The position numbers and the translations under genes were made by a program. This document shows, piece by piece, positions 872 through 20,347 of a stretch of DNA of 64,000 nucleotides. The notes under the pieces were generated by a model. That model did no database searches, was not told where the DNA came from, and saw only the letters and a program-made list of their open reading frames with translations. The DNA is taken from positions 2,046,001 through 2,110,000 of the forward strand of contig MU053758.1 of NCBI GenBank assembly GCA_013239625.1, read 5' to 3'. The stretch is from Lama guanicoe. Its lineage: Eukaryota. How positions within the stretch are numbered: the first letter of the stretch is position 1; each line of letters begins with the position of its first letter.

Positions 872-1032
872 CTCGAGGAAGAAGAGCGCAGCGTTGGAGG
901 TGGGGTGGCCGTTGATGTAGATCCCCGCCAGGATGATGGCTGCCACGAGGAAGACGGCCAACACGATGCCCACGATGGTGCCCAGATGCACAGGGGAGCC
1001 TTTTGTCTTGGGGGACAGGTTGTTCTGAAGGC
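872..1032 (-). CDS. PLXDC1: PLXDC1 exon 13 (transmembrane helix)
   Basis: (G)[62 protein letters not shown]; 161 nt. Confidence 0.95.
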
Positions 1033-3140: not shown

Positions 3141-3176
3141 CGTCTCCTCCTGCGTAGGGATTCAGCTTGGTGTCAT
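3141..3176 (-). CDS. PLXDC1: PLXDC1 exon 12
   Basis: (D)DTKLNPYAGGD; pyrimidine tract + AAG acceptor, GTGAGT donor; 36 nt. Confidence 0.92.
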
Positions 3177-5075: not shown

Positions 5076-5625
5076 CCCTTGGCAGACAAAAGGACACCTA
5101 CAGCCAGTCCCTCCCACAAGGCGACTGAAGGTGACCACGCTGTGCCCACAGCAGCTTTCCTCCCACTCACTGATGGCTGGTTCCCAGCTGCCATCTTGTT
5201 AGGAGTCCACAGAATACAAACCATTCCCTAATGAATGGGGCTGTGGTAGAGTCCCATGGCAACTCACAGGGTGAAGAAATGCGAGCGATGTCTATTGAAT
5301 GAGTCGTCATTCTCTATAGTGAGGGGTCACTTCTTGCTGCTACCGATGTGTTCTGTTCAGCTGCTCATCAGATGAGCCCTTATATTGCTCAGTTATTCCA
5401 GGTCAGCGCCTGTCTGTCCTTATGATAAAATGCACAGGCTGCGTGGCAGCTGCTTGCCGCTCCAAGGTCATTTGGGTTCACTTAAGTGGGTAGCATTTAA
5501 TTGCAAGTGAACAGCTCTGAAACTCCAGCCCCCATACCTCCTGCCCCACTGGCCCTCTCTGCTAGGGGTCCACACACCCTCCAGCAGCCGCTCCCACTAA
5601 CTTCTCAGCTCTCCAACCCTGCCCT
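5076..5625 (+). repeat. Long inverted repeat, left arm (PLXDC1 intron 11)
   Basis: Reverse complement of 14658-15215; 5223-5586 is identical to revcomp 14697-15060 (364 bp) and 5124-5200 identical to revcomp 15084-15160 (77 bp) by manual alignment. Confidence 0.97.
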
Positions 5626-7890: not shown

Positions 7891-8026
7891 CTTCTGTGGT
7901 GAGGCTGTCGATGAAGAGGGAGGAGGAGGTGGTGGTGAGGTCTCCGTCAAAGGGGCTAGAGGAGCTGTCTGGGGAGGACGAGAACGAGTCCTCATCCTGG
8001 AAGTCTGCACACGTCTTGCCCTCTGC
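7891..8026 (-). CDS. PLXDC1: PLXDC1 exon 11 (acidic Ser/Thr-rich stalk)
   Basis: [54 protein letters not shown]; 136 nt; ends phase 1. Confidence 0.95.
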
Positions 8027-9191
8027 CTGCAAGAGAGACCCAGCGCTGCCCTGGACGGAGGCCTCGCCGGCAGCCACACCACACACAGGAGCACGGTGGG
8101 GGCACTTTCATCCCTCAGCAGCCAGAAGATTTAAGATTCTGGTGTGTGGTCCAAGGGTGGTAATCTAACCAAAGTGGGCCCTGAATGCATTTAAGCTTCC
8201 CACTTCATCCTGAAAGCGTCTTATCTTCCAGGGCAATTTATCTATCAGCTGCTTGGAATCCTTCCCAAAGGAAGCAGCTGAGATGCCAATCTTAAATATT
8301 TAAAGCAAATTTGTACATTCGCTAACAGCCAACGTAGAAGCGGGCTCCTGGACAAGTTTTTTGGTTTTGTTTTTTTGAAACAGACAGTTTACCCAGACTT
8401 ACTGATAAAAACAGGAGGTGGTGAACACACAGCAGTAATTCCGGGGGTTCACATTTAAATGTTGGGCCCAGCACTTTCATTACCTCCCCAGCTGTGAGAT
8501 GCTGGCCAACTCACTAAATCTCTCCGAGCCTCAGATTCCTGTTCTGATCAGCTGAGGCACCGACCCCCAGCTCCTGGGCCCATGTTAGGATTAAATCAGA
8601 GCAAGTGCAGAGCAGCATGCCATGTGCTTGCACTGCAAGAAGGGATGGAGAGAGGAAGAGAGGGGAAAAGGACAGATGGATGACTGTGTCTGTCTGTGTC
8701 AGTATAAGGTGTGAGAATATGATGCTCTCCACCCAAAGTATTGAGCATTCTGGAAAATTCCAGAAGTGAGAAGGAACCTGTATGGGATTCTAAGTGGAGG
8801 ATGTGGGAAACCACCCTCCTCGCTCCCAGAATGACAGCCTTCCTCAATGCTGGCGGGTTGGAGCTAGGTCAGTTGCTTTTTGAACATCACCAGGTGTACA
8901 GCCTCCCAGGAGATCCTGCTATGGCCAAGGCCACATCCGAGGTCCCCTCTGCAAGGACCAAAAGAGTCCCTGGGGAGCAAGACCAAGTCACCAAGAGAAG
9001 TACTTGTCCCAGGGACCCACCAAGCCCTCGAAAACCTCCCACGTTGGCCAACTCGGAGCAGATGGTGGGACCAGCCCCAGGCAGAGGGGAGAATTTCACC
9101 AAGAGCCAAAGACGCCTTGAGAAAAGCTACCAAGTGAGGGGCTACCAGCAGCCTGGCCCTTCCCCACTCCTGGCGCACTGAACCCTCTCAC

Positions 9192-9252
9192 CTCCTGGGC
9201 ACAGCCGTAGGCCAGCCACTCCTGGCGGTAGCGGTCAAAGCCACTGGAGCAT
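9192..9252 (-). CDS. PLXDC1: PLXDC1 exon 10 (PSI domain, C-terminal part)
   Basis: [29 protein letters not shown]; 61 nt. Confidence 0.95.
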
Positions 9253-11341
9253 CTGCAAGGGGAACCAAAAGGCCAGAGGTGTGATGGGTTGACAGAGAAG
9301 CCGTCCCCTCCATTTCCCCCCTTGCAGTAACAGTTCTCTGGTGATAGCAAAGAAGGGGCGAACCTCCCCAAGACCACTAGGCAGGTGCTCCGGCACCAAG
9401 GGGCTGTGGGATCAGGAGTCAGACCCTCCTGCCCCACCTCTACTCCTTCCCCCAAAGGAGGGGAAGCGATTTGTGGCATTCTTCCGAAGCCAGCTCCCCA
9501 GGACCAAGGCCACGTCTGCCCAGGTGTGTGTGTGTAGGGAGCTGACGGACTGCCTGACCTCTAATGACCTTTAAGACGCTCCCTGACTATGGGCAGCCTG
9601 AAATTGCTGAAAATCCAGGGAATTCACACCATGTTTTCATCTAGGTAAAGTCTTGCTCATTTGCCGAGCCCCACTTCTTGGTGGAGGAGCCTAAACTTGG
9701 CACAAGGAGAAGCAATGTGGAAGGTGGGCACCAGCTGATCTGGCCAGCACCTGCTGTGTGACCATTAAAGGGCAGTGAGGGTCTTGCCATAAACTGGAGG
9801 AGATTAAAGACTGGCTGACAAGGGTCCCCCGAGAGGATACTGCAAGGTCAGCTGGGCTGGAAGACGTCAAGTGCTTCCCTAGGGAAGAGGTGCAGGTGTA
9901 AGGATGAACCAGAGAATGTTCTCCACAGCATCATGCTCAACGCTCTGTTCTTCACTCTGTTGCCAGGAGATGCTATCAAGCCCTACTCAAGTGCAGGGAC
10001 GTCTGCATGGGAAGATAGTTTCACGAGCCACCAGTGCTGAAAAGGGAGCCGTGGCTGGTTAACTCTGCACCAGCAACTGCCCGCTCATCTTCCCAAGATC
10101 TGGTGAGGCTGAGGCTTCGAGGCACTGTCAGTCTTTCCTTCTGAAGATGTCCCTGAGCTGCTCCTCCTGCAGTGGGGACAACTGAACGGAACTGAGCTCT
10201 TCCTCTCAGGTCCTCTGTGCCCACTGCTTCAAGGGATGGAGGGTTAGGGGCACTGTTGGGGGATGGGAACTAAAATTTCTTTTAGGCCAAACAGAACTGG
10301 TTCTTTTAAGGATTGAGCCTTCAATGTGGTCTAAGAGCATTACATTCCAAGCCCCAGGCCAACCAACCCAGATGCGAAGGAGAAGGGCATGAGAAATGGC
10401 CATTGTCTGAGCACCTCTGGACGCCACGTGTGGCCCCAGTCACATGCTGCTCCTGAACTATCTCATGGGACTCCCAAAGACACTGCAAAGCAAAGGGATA
10501 GGACCCTCATTTTCTGAGCCAAATCCTGGAGTCAAGGTCACTTGCAGTCTCCGGAGTGGGCCACTGGGGGGCAACGTGGGGTGAGAGGAAGACTCCTGCA
10601 TGATAAATGAAGTAATCAAAATCAGCTCCGGCCCCATCACGGGGAAGCCGAGGACACACGCGGTGGTTGCCAGCAGCTGCTGGTGGGAGAGACCACGGTG
10701 GCCGGCCCACTGCAGCAGCCCTGACCTCTAGCTTTTTAGGAGGCTGGAGTCTGCTCTCGGTTGGAGCTGAGGAGATCTGTCTGGAAGGGGCCTGTGTTGG
10801 GTGAGCCCAGGCCCCCAGACATCCGGGGACAGGATACTCAGCACTGAGTCAGCCTTGCACACTCCCCAGTGGAGCTTCTCTGTTCCGGACCTGACATAAC
10901 CCAGCAAAGGCAGTGTCCACACCCAAGGCCCTGCCCTCCCCATGACCAACCCTCATTAAACTGTCAGGGTTTTCTGGGTTTGGGTGTATGCATTAAGTGG
11001 GGGGTGTATCAAGCCAGGGTTCTGCTTTCATCTGACCCACTTTGCAGTTCTCATGGCTCAGCTGTTGTTGGATGCTGAGTCACGTGGTGGCAGCCAGCCC
11101 AGCATTCCAGGGCTCATCTGAGGTCTTCTGGATTATCTCCCCACCCTCAGACAGTGGCTCTCAAACTTGAAAGTGCCCAAGATGGATCACACCACAAAGC
11201 TCCACGCCAGGAACAACCAAGCTGGGGTCTACCCCGTGTACTCTCTGAGGCTCAGCACCTTTTATGTGAAGGGCCCTAAACACTTTGCAAAAATACCATT
11301 TGGCATTTGAGGAGTTAAAATAACAGGCAAGGGTCAGGGAA

Positions 11342-11485
11342 GGGGGGTGGAGAAGGTAGAGTTCAGTGGTAGAGCTTCTACTTAGCATGCGTGAGGTCCT
11401 GGGTTCAATCCCCAGGACCTCCATTAAAAATAAATAAATAAACCTAATTACCTCTCCCCAAAGTAAAAAACAAATTAAAAATAAA
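11342..11485 (+). mobile_element. Vic-1-like SINE
   Basis: tRNA-like head, AAATAAACCTAATTACCTC tail, flanking AAAATAACAGGCA repeats. Confidence 0.8.
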
Positions 11486-12694
11486 ATAACAGGCACGTTT
11501 CAAAAAATAAAAAACAAAAAACAAAAAACAGGCATGTTCCTCATCCCCATCTCCTCGAATCACATAACCCCAGCCCATTTTACAGAGAAAGCAAACTGAG
11601 GCCCCAAGGAAGCCTGATGAGGGGCCCTTTCTCCTCCTGGCCCACAGCTCTGTCTTGTCTACTGGGCAGGCCTCCTGTAAAGGCAATAGTTTCTATTCCT
11701 GCGTCAGAATATTGGAAAGGTGCAAAAGGAACACTGACAGCTGCAGGATAGCTGCATAGAACTCGAGCCTCTGTAATTTGCAAGTGTCAAGATTATCTTA
11801 AAGGCTCTTGGAGTTTATAAGTCTTTCCACTGTCATGGGACCCCTAGTCCCCAAAGAAATTCTCTTTTTTTCTTTCTGCCATTTATTTATCTTGGACAGG
11901 AGAACAGGGCTCCGATTCTGAATCTAATCTATGAGGACATGATTTCAGAACAGGGAGTGGAAGAGGAGCTGAATTTAAGAAATTTATCCCTGAATCTGAA
12001 TCTCATCCAGAATTTTCCCTGCTTCCAAAACCAAGCAAACACAGCTTTGTAGTTTGCCCCAACTTTCCACAGACGCCTGCAGTTTCCACAACCTTGGGTT
12101 TTTAGGAAACCCTGCTGCAGCCTGACTGAGAAAGATCTTGAGGTGGTGTTCTGGGGTAGTGGGGCTCTGGCCCAGTGGCAGTGGGTCTTTGGATCATCCC
12201 CTGTCTCTGAGCCGGCAGATCTCATGCTTGTTTGTGGATGAGACACCATGTTAAAATGCAGGCTCGTGGGTTTCTCTCCCAGAGATCCTGATGCAGGGGG
12301 CTGGGCCCCAGGAATCTGTATGTTTAATGTGAGCCCGAGCTGATGCTGGGATGCTCCCAACTGTGGACCACTCTTTGGGAAGGCCGGCCCAAGGATGAGC
12401 CAACCCTTCCAGGTGTGAGGAGGGAGCTGCAGTAGCTGGAATTTCCAAATTGTCTTCCAGAAGTCTAGTGTCACCACAGGGTGAAACAAAGTCACCTCGA
12501 TCAGTCACAAGCCTCAGGGAGAAACTCACTTCTGTGATATTCTTGTCCTGAGCATCAGAGTAGCCCTAGCCAGAGATACCTTCATGTAGACAGTGAGGCC
12601 CGAGACAGGGAGCGAGGCCGTGCCACCTCTGCCCCACCCCTCGGCCCCTCGCACAGTCTGCCTGCGGGACCCAGAGGGCAGCCTGGGGACAAAC

Positions 12695-12776
12695 CTCTGG
12701 AGGACGTGGCACCAGCTGCAGTTGAAGGTCAGGTCTGAGGACATGCAGGCGTCACAGCTCCGATGCTGCAGGCAGG
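12695..12776 (-). CDS. PLXDC1: PLXDC1 exon 9 (PSI domain, N-terminal part)
   Basis: (T)[26 protein letters not shown](R); CAG/GTTTGT; 82 nt. Confidence 0.95.
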
Positions 12777-14657: not shown

Positions 14658-15215
14658 AGGGCAGAGTCAGAGAGCAGAAAAGTTAGTGGGAGCGGTTGCT
14701 GGAGGGTGTGTGGACCCCTAGCAGAGAGGGCCAGTGGGGCAGGAGGTATGGGGGCTGGAGTTTCAGAGCTGTTCACTTGCAATTAAATGCTACCCACTTA
14801 AGTGAACCCAAATGACCTTGGAGCGGCAAGCAGCTGCCACGCAGCCTGTGCATTTTATCATAAGGACAGACAGGCGCTGACCTGGAATAACTGAGCAATA
14901 TAAGGGCTCATCTGATGAGCAGCTGAACAGAACACATCGGTAGCAGCAAGAAGTGACCCCTCACTATAGAGAATGACGACTCATTCAATAGACATCGCTC
15001 GCATTTCTTCACCCTGTGAGTTGCCATGGGACTCTACCACAGCCCCATTCATTAGGGAATCGGTTTGCATTCCATGGACCTCCAACAAGATGGCAGCTGG
15101 GAACCAGCCATCAGTGAGTGGGAGGAAAGCTGCTGTGGGCACAGCGTGGTCACCTTCAGTTGCCTTGTGGGAGGAACTGGCTGTAGGTGGCACTGTGTCC
15201 TTTTGTCTACCAGGG
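14658..15215 (-). repeat. Long inverted repeat, right arm (PLXDC1 intron 8)
   Basis: Partner of 5076-5625; also visible as identical peptides in ORFs 5501..5683(+) and 14432..14782(-). Confidence 0.97.
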
Positions 15216-17012
15216 CTTTGCAGGCTTTGGAAGGGTGGATGGAAAGCCATCTGCAAGAAATAAGCAGGGACTGGCCCGGCTGGAGAATGAAGAGTTCTGG
15301 CTGTTTTGTTCTCTGGTGCATCCAGAGAGTCTAGAGTAGCGCCCAGCAAGTGGCAGGCAGTTAACAGAATCGATGTATAGTTGCTTTTGTCATCCTCATT
15401 TGACAGAGGAGGAAACTGAGGCTTGGAGAGAGTCCCTGAGCTAAGAGTGGCAGGTCTGGGTTTGGACTAATCTGTCTAAGCCAAGAGCCTGAGTTCTTAG
15501 CCTCAAGATCCCACTGTGGGTTCTACCTCTACCCTAGGCCACCTTTTCACGAGTCTCTTTGAGAAGAGGGACCAGCCAAGAAGTGTGATGGCTTAAAGAT
15601 AGTGCATCCACATCTCTGGAAGAATTTCGGCCAAGTATTCCCCTACCCAAAGGTAAGGGAGAAAGCCTGGGGCTGTAAGATGCAGAGTTTTCTGAGGACA
15701 AAGCTCACCGGCCTCCCAGGAGCTGAGATCACAGCCTTGACAGCACTGCCCCCTTCCCCACATGGGAGCCCCTGACCTGGTCATTCCCAGTGACTCTGGA
15801 GGCCCCTTAAATGACTCCAGTTAAGCTGAAAAAAAACCCTGGGAGCCTCGTGGGGTATTCATAAAACCCACTAACCTTTATTTCTCATCTGCATTTCAGA
15901 TGTCCTGAGTGCTATTAAATGCTCACAAAATTCACTGGAGGAGTGGGAAGTGGCTTAAATGTACAGACAGTGTCCCAGAAATGCGCTCCCAGGATGTTTC
16001 ACTTCTTCCACCCGGGCAGTTAGCCCTGCCCTTGGATGTCCTTGTTCCTAAATGCAGCTTATTCATTCCTGGGACTGAAGGTTGCTCTCACCAGTCCTTG
16101 AGGAAGCCCTTCCTAGAGGGAGAGCAGCTGCAGCGGGGCTGGGGCTGTGACTGCAGAGGTCCTGGCCCTATGACTACGTGTCTGGGATGGTCCTCTTTTC
16201 CAGGGGAGGACACCTGCTGGGACACGGCCTAGCCTTTGAGAAGACCCTTCCTTTCTTCCTCTTCTTTTTTCTCCACCTCCAGTTCCCAGAACCTCCAGGG
16301 ACGAGGAAGCTGGGAGGTGCCATGAAACAGGAGAGAAAATTGAAATTGAAACTCTCTTTAAAAATACAGAAATGGGAGTGCTGTCCTTCCCCTCACCCTC
16401 CCCAGCTGCCCTGGCCACATCCTGAAGAGCATCCCACCCCGATCCCGTGGGGTCCACAGCCCCAGCTGGGGCCTCGGAAACGGTATGTCTTCAACTGCAG
16501 ATGAGTGGGGTGCAGAAGAGGGAAGGGACCCAGCCCCCTGGCTGCTGGCTAAATCCCTTTACTGCCTTCTGCCTAGGGATACCAGCACCACCTCTCCCCT
16601 AAGGAAAACACAATGATGAACTTATGGATCAGTTCAGTTCCTGGATTTTCTTTTCTGGGAGCTCAGGCTAAGTTCCCAGAGGTACCTCTTTCATGGGTTT
16701 CAATTACGTATTAATAACAACAGCTGTCACGTATCAAGCACAAACCACGCCTCAGACCTGCGATGGGCCAACTGGTGTCAGAGCTGCCATTTACATCCTC
16801 ATTTCTACTGCCTGAGGCTGTAACCCTTACTGTAGCCCTAGGAGGGAGGTGGTGTTGGGCCTATGTTACAAATGAGAAAGGGGGCCCCAGAGAAGTTAGG
16901 TGGCCATTCCTAGACAGGGGTCAGCAGAGGGCCTACGAATGGAACTCAGTGTGACACCAAAGCCCTTTCCAGGACAGCGGAATGCCTCCTCCCATCAGAA
17001 GAACAACCCCTA

Positions 17013-17225
<213 letters not shown>

Positions 17226-19730: not shown

Positions 19731-20347
19731 TGAGGCGAGAAGCCCCATAAAAAGACAGGCAAGACCCCCAAGCAGGACCACTACTCTCGTGGCACACCAT
19801 TGGGTTCCCTGGCCCAGAGGTTCTATCTCACTTTTTGCCTCTGAAATGGCTTACCCCTAAAATTCTATTGGTTCCCTGAGTCACTTCTGATTGGTTATTT
19901 CCTTCACTCCTGATTGGTTATTACTTTCACTTCTGATTGGTCCACTTCCCTAACTTCTGATTGGTCCATTTGTAGTACTTCATTTGCATAGAGCTCACTC
20001 CTGATTGGTTATTTCTCTCACTCCTGATTGGTCCATTCCCCTCACTCCTGATTGGTTATTTCTCTCACCCCCTGATTTGTCTATTTCTACAAAGCTTGTT
20101 CCTGATTGGTCAACTTCTGTTATACTTTATTTGCATATGATGTTACAAAGTGTAAAACCGGCAGCCTATAAATGCCTGTGTAAACCTACAGACAGGGTTC
20201 AGAGCTTCGAGTGTTAGTTCATCTGGGCTCACTGGCATAATAAACCTGAGTTCTCCAACTCTGAATGCTGCTTGGTCTCTTGCCTGGATGCAGGTTGCTG
20301 TCACAACTGAGTTGTAACACCCAGGTGTAACACATTTTCCTGCAACA
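19731..20347 (+). mobile_element. Solo ERV LTR with tandem CCAAT boxes (boundaries approximate)
   Basis: TG start, 9 ATTGG motifs 19867-20109, TATAAA 20167, AATAAA 20239, ends near ...AACA. Confidence 0.7.

Follow-up and report, generated by a model that had tools for sequence, protein, structure and literature searches.

An inverted repeat with a perfectly matched core brackets exons 9–11 of PLXDC1 in Lama guanicoe

Exons 9–11 of the PLXDC1 (TEM7) gene of Lama guanicoe lie between two long stretches of intron that are reverse complements of each other, and the locus raises the question of whether pairing of these arms removes the enclosed exons, and with them the PSI domain, as a regulated splicing switch. 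Such a switch to a membrane-anchored protein was the original prediction for the stretch of 64,000 nt analysed here, referred to as the window (contig MU053758.1, positions 2,046,001 to 2,110,000 of the forward strand; assembly GCA_013239625.1, 2.05 Gb in 55,231 contigs) and numbered from its first base. The best explanation, to which we give a probability of roughly 0.6, is that the arms arose long ago by inverted duplication of intron sequence and have since acquired a converted core, and that full-length PLXDC1 is the main product of a gene without a regulated switch.

PLXDC1 exons 1–13 are located on the minus strand, with exon 1 at 55833, and translate to 461 residues without a stop. This protein is identical to the Camelus ferus model at 407 of 413 aligned residues and to the Camelus dromedarius model at 340 of 349, and shares 92–94% identity with its counterparts in porpoise, serow, pig and donkey, such that both the orthologous exon series and the protein identify the gene. 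Every splice site from exon 8 to exon 12 is canonical with pyrimidine-rich acceptors, and exons 9, 10 and 11 have AG/GT ends. The exons and arms concerned are the following.

17018..17113, minus strand: PLXDC1 exon 8, 96 nt, phase 1 at both ends; the proposed skip would have this donor as its 5' side
12695..12776, minus strand: exon 9, 82 nt, first part of the PSI domain, five Cys
9192..9252, minus strand: exon 10, 61 nt, second part of the PSI domain, two Cys
7891..8026, minus strand: exon 11, 136 nt, last Cys and Ser/Thr-rich stalk
3141..3176, minus strand: exon 12, 36 nt, phase 1 at both ends; would supply the acceptor for the skip
872..1032, minus strand: exon 13, 161 nt, hydrophobic transmembrane stretch
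14658..15215, no strand assigned: intron-8 arm of the inverted repeat, 558 nt
5077..5625, no strand assigned: intron-11 arm of the inverted repeat, 549 nt
14697..15060, no strand assigned: core of the intron-8 arm, 364 nt, exact reverse complement of 5223–5586
5223..5586, no strand assigned: core of the intron-11 arm, 364 nt

The two arms are 95.5% identical over 558 columns, are separated by 9,032 nt, and constitute the sole inverted pair longer than 200 nt in the window. The arrangement is that of the exon loop-out described for TBXT, with long complementary arms (558 and 549 nt) in both flanking introns. Both arms are set in unique flanks and the window contains no N. A search of the 2.05-Gb genome returned two matches each for the arm and the core, also at E ≤ 10, a count that by the method of search is not in itself proof of rarity, and Rfam gave no match to the arm at E ≤ 1. 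With two genome matches and no Rfam match the arms do not qualify as copies of an abundant repeat of the Alu or short interspersed element (SINE) type; an ancient, decayed element is still conceivable as their source.

Differences between the arms are arranged as a mosaic. From the outside inward there are 47 nt with four substitutions and an 8-nt indel, 77 identical nt, ~22 nt with three substitutions and three single-base indels, 364 identical nt, and 39 nt with six substitutions, and the diverged patches differ by roughly 10–25%. Random scatter of 17, 19 or 25 differences over 558 columns gave a run of 364 in none of 20,000 trials each (longest run, 291). That a single genome has perfect tracts of 364 and 77 nt set among diverged patches corresponds to the pattern of concerted evolution, and a mosaic of this type is the usual mark of gene conversion between old copies.

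The exon block enclosed by the arms is 82+61+136 = 279 nt long with phase 1 on both flanks. These lengths, their sum, the phases, and an exon 8-to-12 join through the codon A/AT (Asn) that reads in frame through exon 12 had all been given in the original prediction and are confirmed on the sequence, as is the claim that no single exon or adjacent pair is frame-neutral, since among the seven combinations of exons 9, 10 and 11 only all three jointly keep the frame. A length that is a multiple of 3 and equal flanking phases make the block a multi-exon in-frame cassette by form, for which the base rate is high: in the window's part of PLXDC1, seven of 13 introns are in phase 1, 31 of 78 intron pairs have the same phase, and six of the ten blocks of three consecutive exons are frame-neutral. 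The in-frame property of the exon 9–11 block is thus not beyond chance; the arms are far beyond chance.

The Cys-rich segment within this block was proposed to be the PSI domain, and the Pfam profile PF01437 bears this out on orthologues (it was run on these rather than on the window's own spliced protein), matching residues 304–348 of the porpoise protein, which correspond to exons 9–10, with scores of 28.8 and 29.0 bits in the Camelus dromedarius and porpoise proteins (cut-off, 23.1). The profile has no match in two PLXDC1 models that are without exon 9. All eight Cys residues of exons 1–13 are in exons 9–11 (five, two and one, respectively), and a skip would therefore take out the domain cleanly.

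If the block were skipped at an appreciable level, the joined form might be found among annotated proteins. Of 412 proteins fetched, 224 contain exon 8 and 157 contain exon 8 together with an in-frame exon 13; the remaining 255, with less than 0.8 of the self-score on exon 8 or less than 0.75 on exon 13, include PLXDC2, forms from fish and most of those from birds, as well as fragments and cluster members that are unrelated. The inputs included an exon 2 query (106 matches among 206 candidates) and protein clusters of up to 232 members, from each of which at most 15 members were listed. Some of these clusters also contain FBXO47, ARL5C and CACNB1 proteins, and cluster sizes overstate the PLXDC1 count. 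None of the 157 proteins, nor any other of the 412, has an exon 8-to-12 or 8-to-13 join; camelids are represented by two Camelus gene models, a skip confined to camelids would escape this sample, and human X3, X4 and X11 are outside the set. Exons 9–12 are all present in 131 of the proteins, 23 are without exon 12 only, two aberrant models are without exon 11 or exons 11–12, and one is without exons 9–11; exons 9 and 10 are kept in 156. Loss of the 36-nt exon 12 is the commonest in-frame variant of the region (23/157). Loss of exon 9 alone, which is out of frame, is on record in 11 of the 224 (macaques, capuchin, marmoset and grey seal), and minor forms are therefore captured by the set.

Two further queries were restricted by length. 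The C-terminal 245 residues of the porpoise protein, at subject lengths of 134–429, gave no skip form among the best 120 of 239 matches, down to 183 bits, and we estimate that a mammalian skip form would score well above this value. A peptide of exons 9–11, at lengths of 51–163, gave no back-splice peptide in 20 matches of 22 candidates. The 407-residue isoforms of capuchin and marmoset fit the predicted length of the skip form and were considered as candidates; they are actually without exons 9, 12 and 13, with the frame restored in exon 14, and have neither a PSI domain nor a membrane anchor. The one protein without exactly exons 9–11 is the jaguarundi RefSeq model P0079, in which 29 filler residues bridge exon 8 to exon 12. 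The filler resembles intron sequence immediately ahead of exon 12, though weakly (score 42; shuffle maximum 41), and the missing exons may be due to an inversion, to mis-joining at a similar repeat, or to a gap in the assembly.

Sequence related to the arms is present in PLXDC1 models of other mammals, a comparison made through peptides of gene models. Two regions of the window are involved.

15154..15225, minus strand: vampire bat-like extra exon region, 72 nt with a counterpart in an additional in-frame exon of vampire bat RefSeq isoforms
5145..5254, minus strand: intron-11 arm-derived exon region, matching donkey (~5254–5171) and langur (5228–5145) exons after exon 11

Vampire bat isoforms X1, X2, X4 and X5 contain a 24-residue insert between exons 8 and 9 that matches 15235–15158, corresponding to the outer end of the intron-8 arm plus flank specific to the intron-8 copy (score 92; reached in 0/200 shuffles, maximum 52). 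The length of the insert puts the bat donor on the GT at 15153, which is kept in the window; the bat acceptor is not. Donkey X3 has an arm-matching, frame-shifting exon between exons 11 and 12 (score 107; shuffle maximum 55, 0/200), with its donor-like site retained in the window, and langur X4 has an arm-matching last exon after exon 11 (score 88; shuffle maximum 49, 0/200). A 193-residue open reading frame (ORF), P0294, aligns with the core and the adjoining inner flank of the intron-11 copy at 56.6% amino-acid identity over 122 columns, including indels; the core has therefore changed from genome to genome, yet its two camelid copies are identical. The intron-11 copy is common to a horse relative and a primate, and the outer end of the intron-8 copy is common to a bat. 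By these peptides, the intron-8 copy is represented in the bat (outer end) and the intron-11 copy in donkey, langur and P0294, with both arms together in none of these. The simplest reading of these peptide matches is that of an old repeat under concerted evolution, as with the palindromes of the primate X chromosome and the FLNA-EMD repeats. By the same matches the repeat is probably at least tens of millions of years old, and older than the split of bat, horse and camel.

Further observations concern the arms and their surroundings. A candidate 97-nt exon (15250–15154, minus strand) has an upstream AG, a pyrimidine-rich acceptor and the bat donor, and reaches a stop 14 codons past exon 8. 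In the patch 5201–5223 / 15061–15083 the intron-11 copies of donkey and langur are at most sites closer to the camelid intron-8 arm than to the camelid intron-11 arm, and two other ORFs fit the camelid intron-11 arm at one site; the better fit to the intron-8 arm could be chance or exchange between the arms. A repetitive, unrelated protein (P0296) matched the arm region at E ~5e-4, and matches that weak were discounted. The extra peptides of mole-rat, armadillo and a secreted-type form gave no arm match or no score above shuffles, and in a horseshoe bat model the exon series breaks off at the end of exon 8 and continues into intron-8 sequence that lies upstream of the arm, which is uninformative on the repeat. 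Metagenome contigs scanned for exon 10 and for an arm motif yielded no matches.

The favoured explanation joins these observations as follows. The arms would be an old inverted duplication of intron sequence confined to the PLXDC1 locus, and gene conversion between copies 9 kb apart would have made the arm middle identical again. In the pre-mRNA they could form a duplex of ~550 bp (predicted energy −1165 kcal/mol in the sense strand, −1145 in the antisense), only in transcripts with intron 8 still unspliced when intron 11 is made. The second arm begins 7,151 nt after the exon 9 acceptor; transcription proceeds at 2–3 kb per minute, and pairing, delayed by a few minutes, therefore competes with removal of intron 8. 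The arms are 1,803, 1,882, 2,266 and 1,901 nt from the four relevant splice sites, and closure of the stem shortens the path from the exon 8 donor to the exon 12 acceptor from 13,841 to 3,702 nt, compared with 4,241 nt for intron 8 itself, and leaves a back-splice path of 4,146 nt. Editing by ADAR and masking of splice-like sites within the arms would be expected as by-products, together with low levels of an exon 9–11 circle and an exon 8-to-12 mRNA; from two reports on intronic pairing (PMC10901737, PMC8052449) we would anticipate pairing in a minority of transcripts, with editing and some circle and skipped mRNA. Splice-like sites of the arms are in use in other mammals and two of their donors are kept in the window, which invites the speculation that the duplex might mask them. 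The in-frame fit of the block would be a coincidence of PLXDC1 intron phases, and full-length PLXDC1 would stay the main product.

The switch itself would require that arm pairing loops out exons 9–11 often and under control to give a functional membrane-anchored PLXDC1 without the PSI domain, a product expected to keep the PEDF-binding domain and to lose the self-association domain. Such a product would make sense biochemically: oligomerization depends on domain D (293–359), of which the plexin homology domain is part, and PEDF is bound by domain B (PMC4303762). The in-frame join would remove all eight Cys of exons 1–13 with none left unpaired, the predicted duplex energy in sense RNA is −1165 kcal/mol, the path with the stem closed is shorter than intron 8, and TBXT provides a precedent. 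We nevertheless regard a regulated cassette as unlikely, given that the join is found in none of the 157 proteins, whereas skips of exon 12 and exon 9 are recorded; the 407-residue primate isoforms skip exon 9 and exons 12–13 instead, and the named human isoforms seen without the membrane form end through other exons after exon 9. The frame-neutrality base rate of 6/10, the canonical splice sites with pyrimidine-rich acceptors from exon 8 to exon 12, and the distance of 1.8–2.3 kb between the arms and every splice site also speak against it. Pairing could alternatively yield as its main product a circular RNA (circRNA) of exons 9–11 (279 nt), in which the exon 11 donor is back-spliced to the exon 9 acceptor and which could be translated round and round into PSI repeats. 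The circle would have one stop-free frame with one ATG (one Met per turn), the back-splice path is short with the stem closed, and long reverse-complementary intron matches lie on both sides, in keeping with the enrichment of conserved pairings outside circRNAs stated in the text seen of PMC8052449. This too is unlikely: 1.9 and 2.3 kb separate the arms from the splice sites of the circle, its endless frame follows from the same phase coincidence, no PLXDC1 circle is named in the titles and abstract openings listed for PLXDC1 and circRNA, and there is no back-splice peptide in the 412 proteins, the last being a weak test as circles are rarely assembled or called as genes. Recombination between the arms could also act on DNA, inverting the 9-kb segment, placing exons 9–11 on the wrong strand and forcing exon 8-to-12 splicing; because that join is in frame, the inverted allele would not be a null and would encode a PSI-less receptor, and repeated inversion and re-inversion would homogenise the core. 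The inverted orientation of the 364-nt perfect core at a separation of 9,032 nt is suited to this, inversions between inverted repeats recur in humans, according to the portion of PMC3961182 consulted, and the jaguarundi model, alone among the 157, is without exactly the bracketed block. We consider it highly unlikely that this is the explanation, since the exons of the window are in normal orientation, 156 of 157 proteins keep exons 9 and 10, and the jaguarundi model may be an assembly gap or a mis-join; a literature search found none joining PLXDC1, inversion and inverted repeat, and the structural variant of pig PLXDC1 described in the available part of PMC11075355 is a 16-kb duplication and not an inversion.

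Two other alternatives concern the origin of the arms rather than their consequences. The repeat may be a younger composite, with an inner 500 nt that came from ancestral intron 11 and an outer 50–60 nt from ancestral intron 8, both of which were duplicated in the camel lineage by a template switch or inversion; this fits any RNA outcome and has a low, though appreciable, chance of being correct. Equivalents of 5124–5625 are seen in intron 11 of other mammals and those of ~5077–5132 in bat intron 8, with an overlap of only ~9 nt by the peptide evidence. Both edges and the inner patch of the arms are diverged, and therefore the repeat is not recent and conversion is still needed, and the jaguarundi model fails at exactly the bracketed exons. 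The perfect core could instead be an artefact of assembly, with reads of two less similar copies merged into one consensus. The assembly is in 55,231 contigs and the exact identity extends over a length near that of a short-read fragment; against this, the assembly separates differences specific to each copy on either side of the core, as well as in the stretch between the 77-nt and 364-nt blocks, the arms have unique flanks, and no N is present in the window. A merged consensus is very improbable here, and it would alter the identity figure only and not the existence of the repeat.

Some of the evidence sits less comfortably with an old, converted repeat of little consequence for splicing. 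The match in the bat is limited to about the outer 60 nt of the intron-8 arm, with an overlap of ~9 nt with the intron-11 part shown in other mammals, and a younger composite duplication is therefore possible; collapse of similar copies in a fragmented assembly can also produce a perfect core. Of the 12 transitions that distinguish the arms, nine produce G-U in sense RNA instead of A-C (one-sided P 0.07), or seven of ten when CA/TG pairs are counted once (P 0.17), a skew that is not significant and gives a weak hint of selection at the RNA level. A transcription-linked A-to-G bias would yield the same skew. In mouse Tbxt, a 297-bp perfect pair led to more skipping than an Alu pair, as presented in the text used from PMC10901737, and skipping in PLXDC1 could therefore exceed a minor level.

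The original prediction is accordingly upheld in its arithmetic and its domain assignment, and in its premise that intronic complementary regions can promote skipping, for which the portions drawn on of PMC10901737 and PMC8052449 supply precedent. Its PSI-less switch is without positive evidence, with no such form in 157 proteins and a base rate of 6/10, and a regulated cassette of exons 9–11 is possible, unsupported and not refuted.

If skipping or inversion does occur, the domain that holds the oligomer would be lost and the PEDF-binding domain kept. In the model presented in the part seen of PMC4303762, PEDF activates the receptor by dissociating an oligomer, and the locus would then offer a natural test of it. 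Extended to its limit, this would be an old repeat, kept by conversion, that makes exons 9–11 removable by RNA pairing or by a 9-kb inversion, giving an in-frame, membrane-anchored PEDF receptor that is unable to self-associate and that may act by ligand-free signalling or as a decoy, together with an exon 9–11 circle with an endless frame, and the jaguarundi reference may carry an inverted allele; we think it improbable that this whole picture is right. Even without a skip, the locus provides a compact, natural, near-perfect inverted repeat of two copies inside one gene. It permits a direct test of whether a stem with arms 9 kb apart and ~2 kb from splice sites leads to skipping, circles or editing, or has no effect, and of the way in which gene conversion maintains similarity between the copies of a short intronic repeat.

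The window has other features outside the exon 9–11 region. Nine copies of a 23-nt unit with a CCAAT box on the minus strand occupy 19881–20088 in intron 7, and presumably resemble the enhancer array of a long terminal repeat (LTR). Two tRNA-Cys (GCA) genes, identical over 72 nt, lie upstream of PLXDC1 at 58066–58138 and 58757–58828. Exon-like frames on the minus strand at ~62200–64000 resemble an ADP-ribosylation factor-like GTPase, and the ARL5C-named proteins in the PLXDC1 clusters fit these frames as a neighbouring gene.

The repeat is absent from the titles and abstract openings on PLXDC1 with inversion, adenosine-to-inosine (A-to-I) editing, circRNA and exon skipping, a search outside which most subscription papers fall, and PLXDC1 is absent from the part of PMC8052449 covered here, five supplementary files. 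Catalogues of circRNAs, editing sites or inversions in supplements or databases may list the locus. The named PLXDC1/TEM7 isoforms (human UniProt isoforms 2 and 3, 'tumor endothelial marker 7-intracellular', and the RefSeq X forms) reflect minor splicing across exons 8–13, in some cases with loss of the PSI domain or of the membrane anchor. Those seen terminate after exon 9, omit exon 8, 9, 10 or 12, or contain exons derived from the arms, and none is both membrane-anchored and PSI-less through the 8-to-12 join.

Among known systems, the closest in layout is TBXT, where the AluY-AluSx1 pair around exon 6, like the pairs engineered in mouse Tbxt and the PLXDC1 arms, is an inverted pair that flanks coding sequence. 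As set out in the text consulted of PMC10901737, inverted non-Alu pairs of 220–297 bp cause exon skipping in Tbxt, such that non-Alu sequence suffices, and higher identity gives more skipping. That system differs in that one exon is looped, the pair is 1,448 bp apart, and skipping was shown by deletion and knock-in; PLXDC1 has three exons, 9,032 nt between its arms, a two-copy sequence and no skipped product found. The conserved complementary regions called PCCRs, described in the sections used of PMC8052449, are likewise intron regions outside an exon block, and have been associated with circRNAs, A-to-I editing, the blocking of cryptic splice sites and reduced exon inclusion, the last seen genome-wide for exons that are looped out. 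The sequence of PCCRs is conserved between species, whereas the PLXDC1 core drifts (56.6% amino-acid identity in a non-coding frame). With regard to its evolution, the repeat resembles the primate X palindromes and the FLNA-EMD repeats, in which, by the account available from PMC8327919, arm identity is greater within a genome than between species, and which have a coding spacer and scope for recurrent inversion. Those are long X-linked arms that flank or hold whole genes, in contrast to the 0.55-kb arms in two introns of one gene, bracketing three internal exons, in PLXDC1. On present evidence the locus is a new example of these known layouts, and what the analysis supports best is an intronic inverted repeat that is old and has a converted core.

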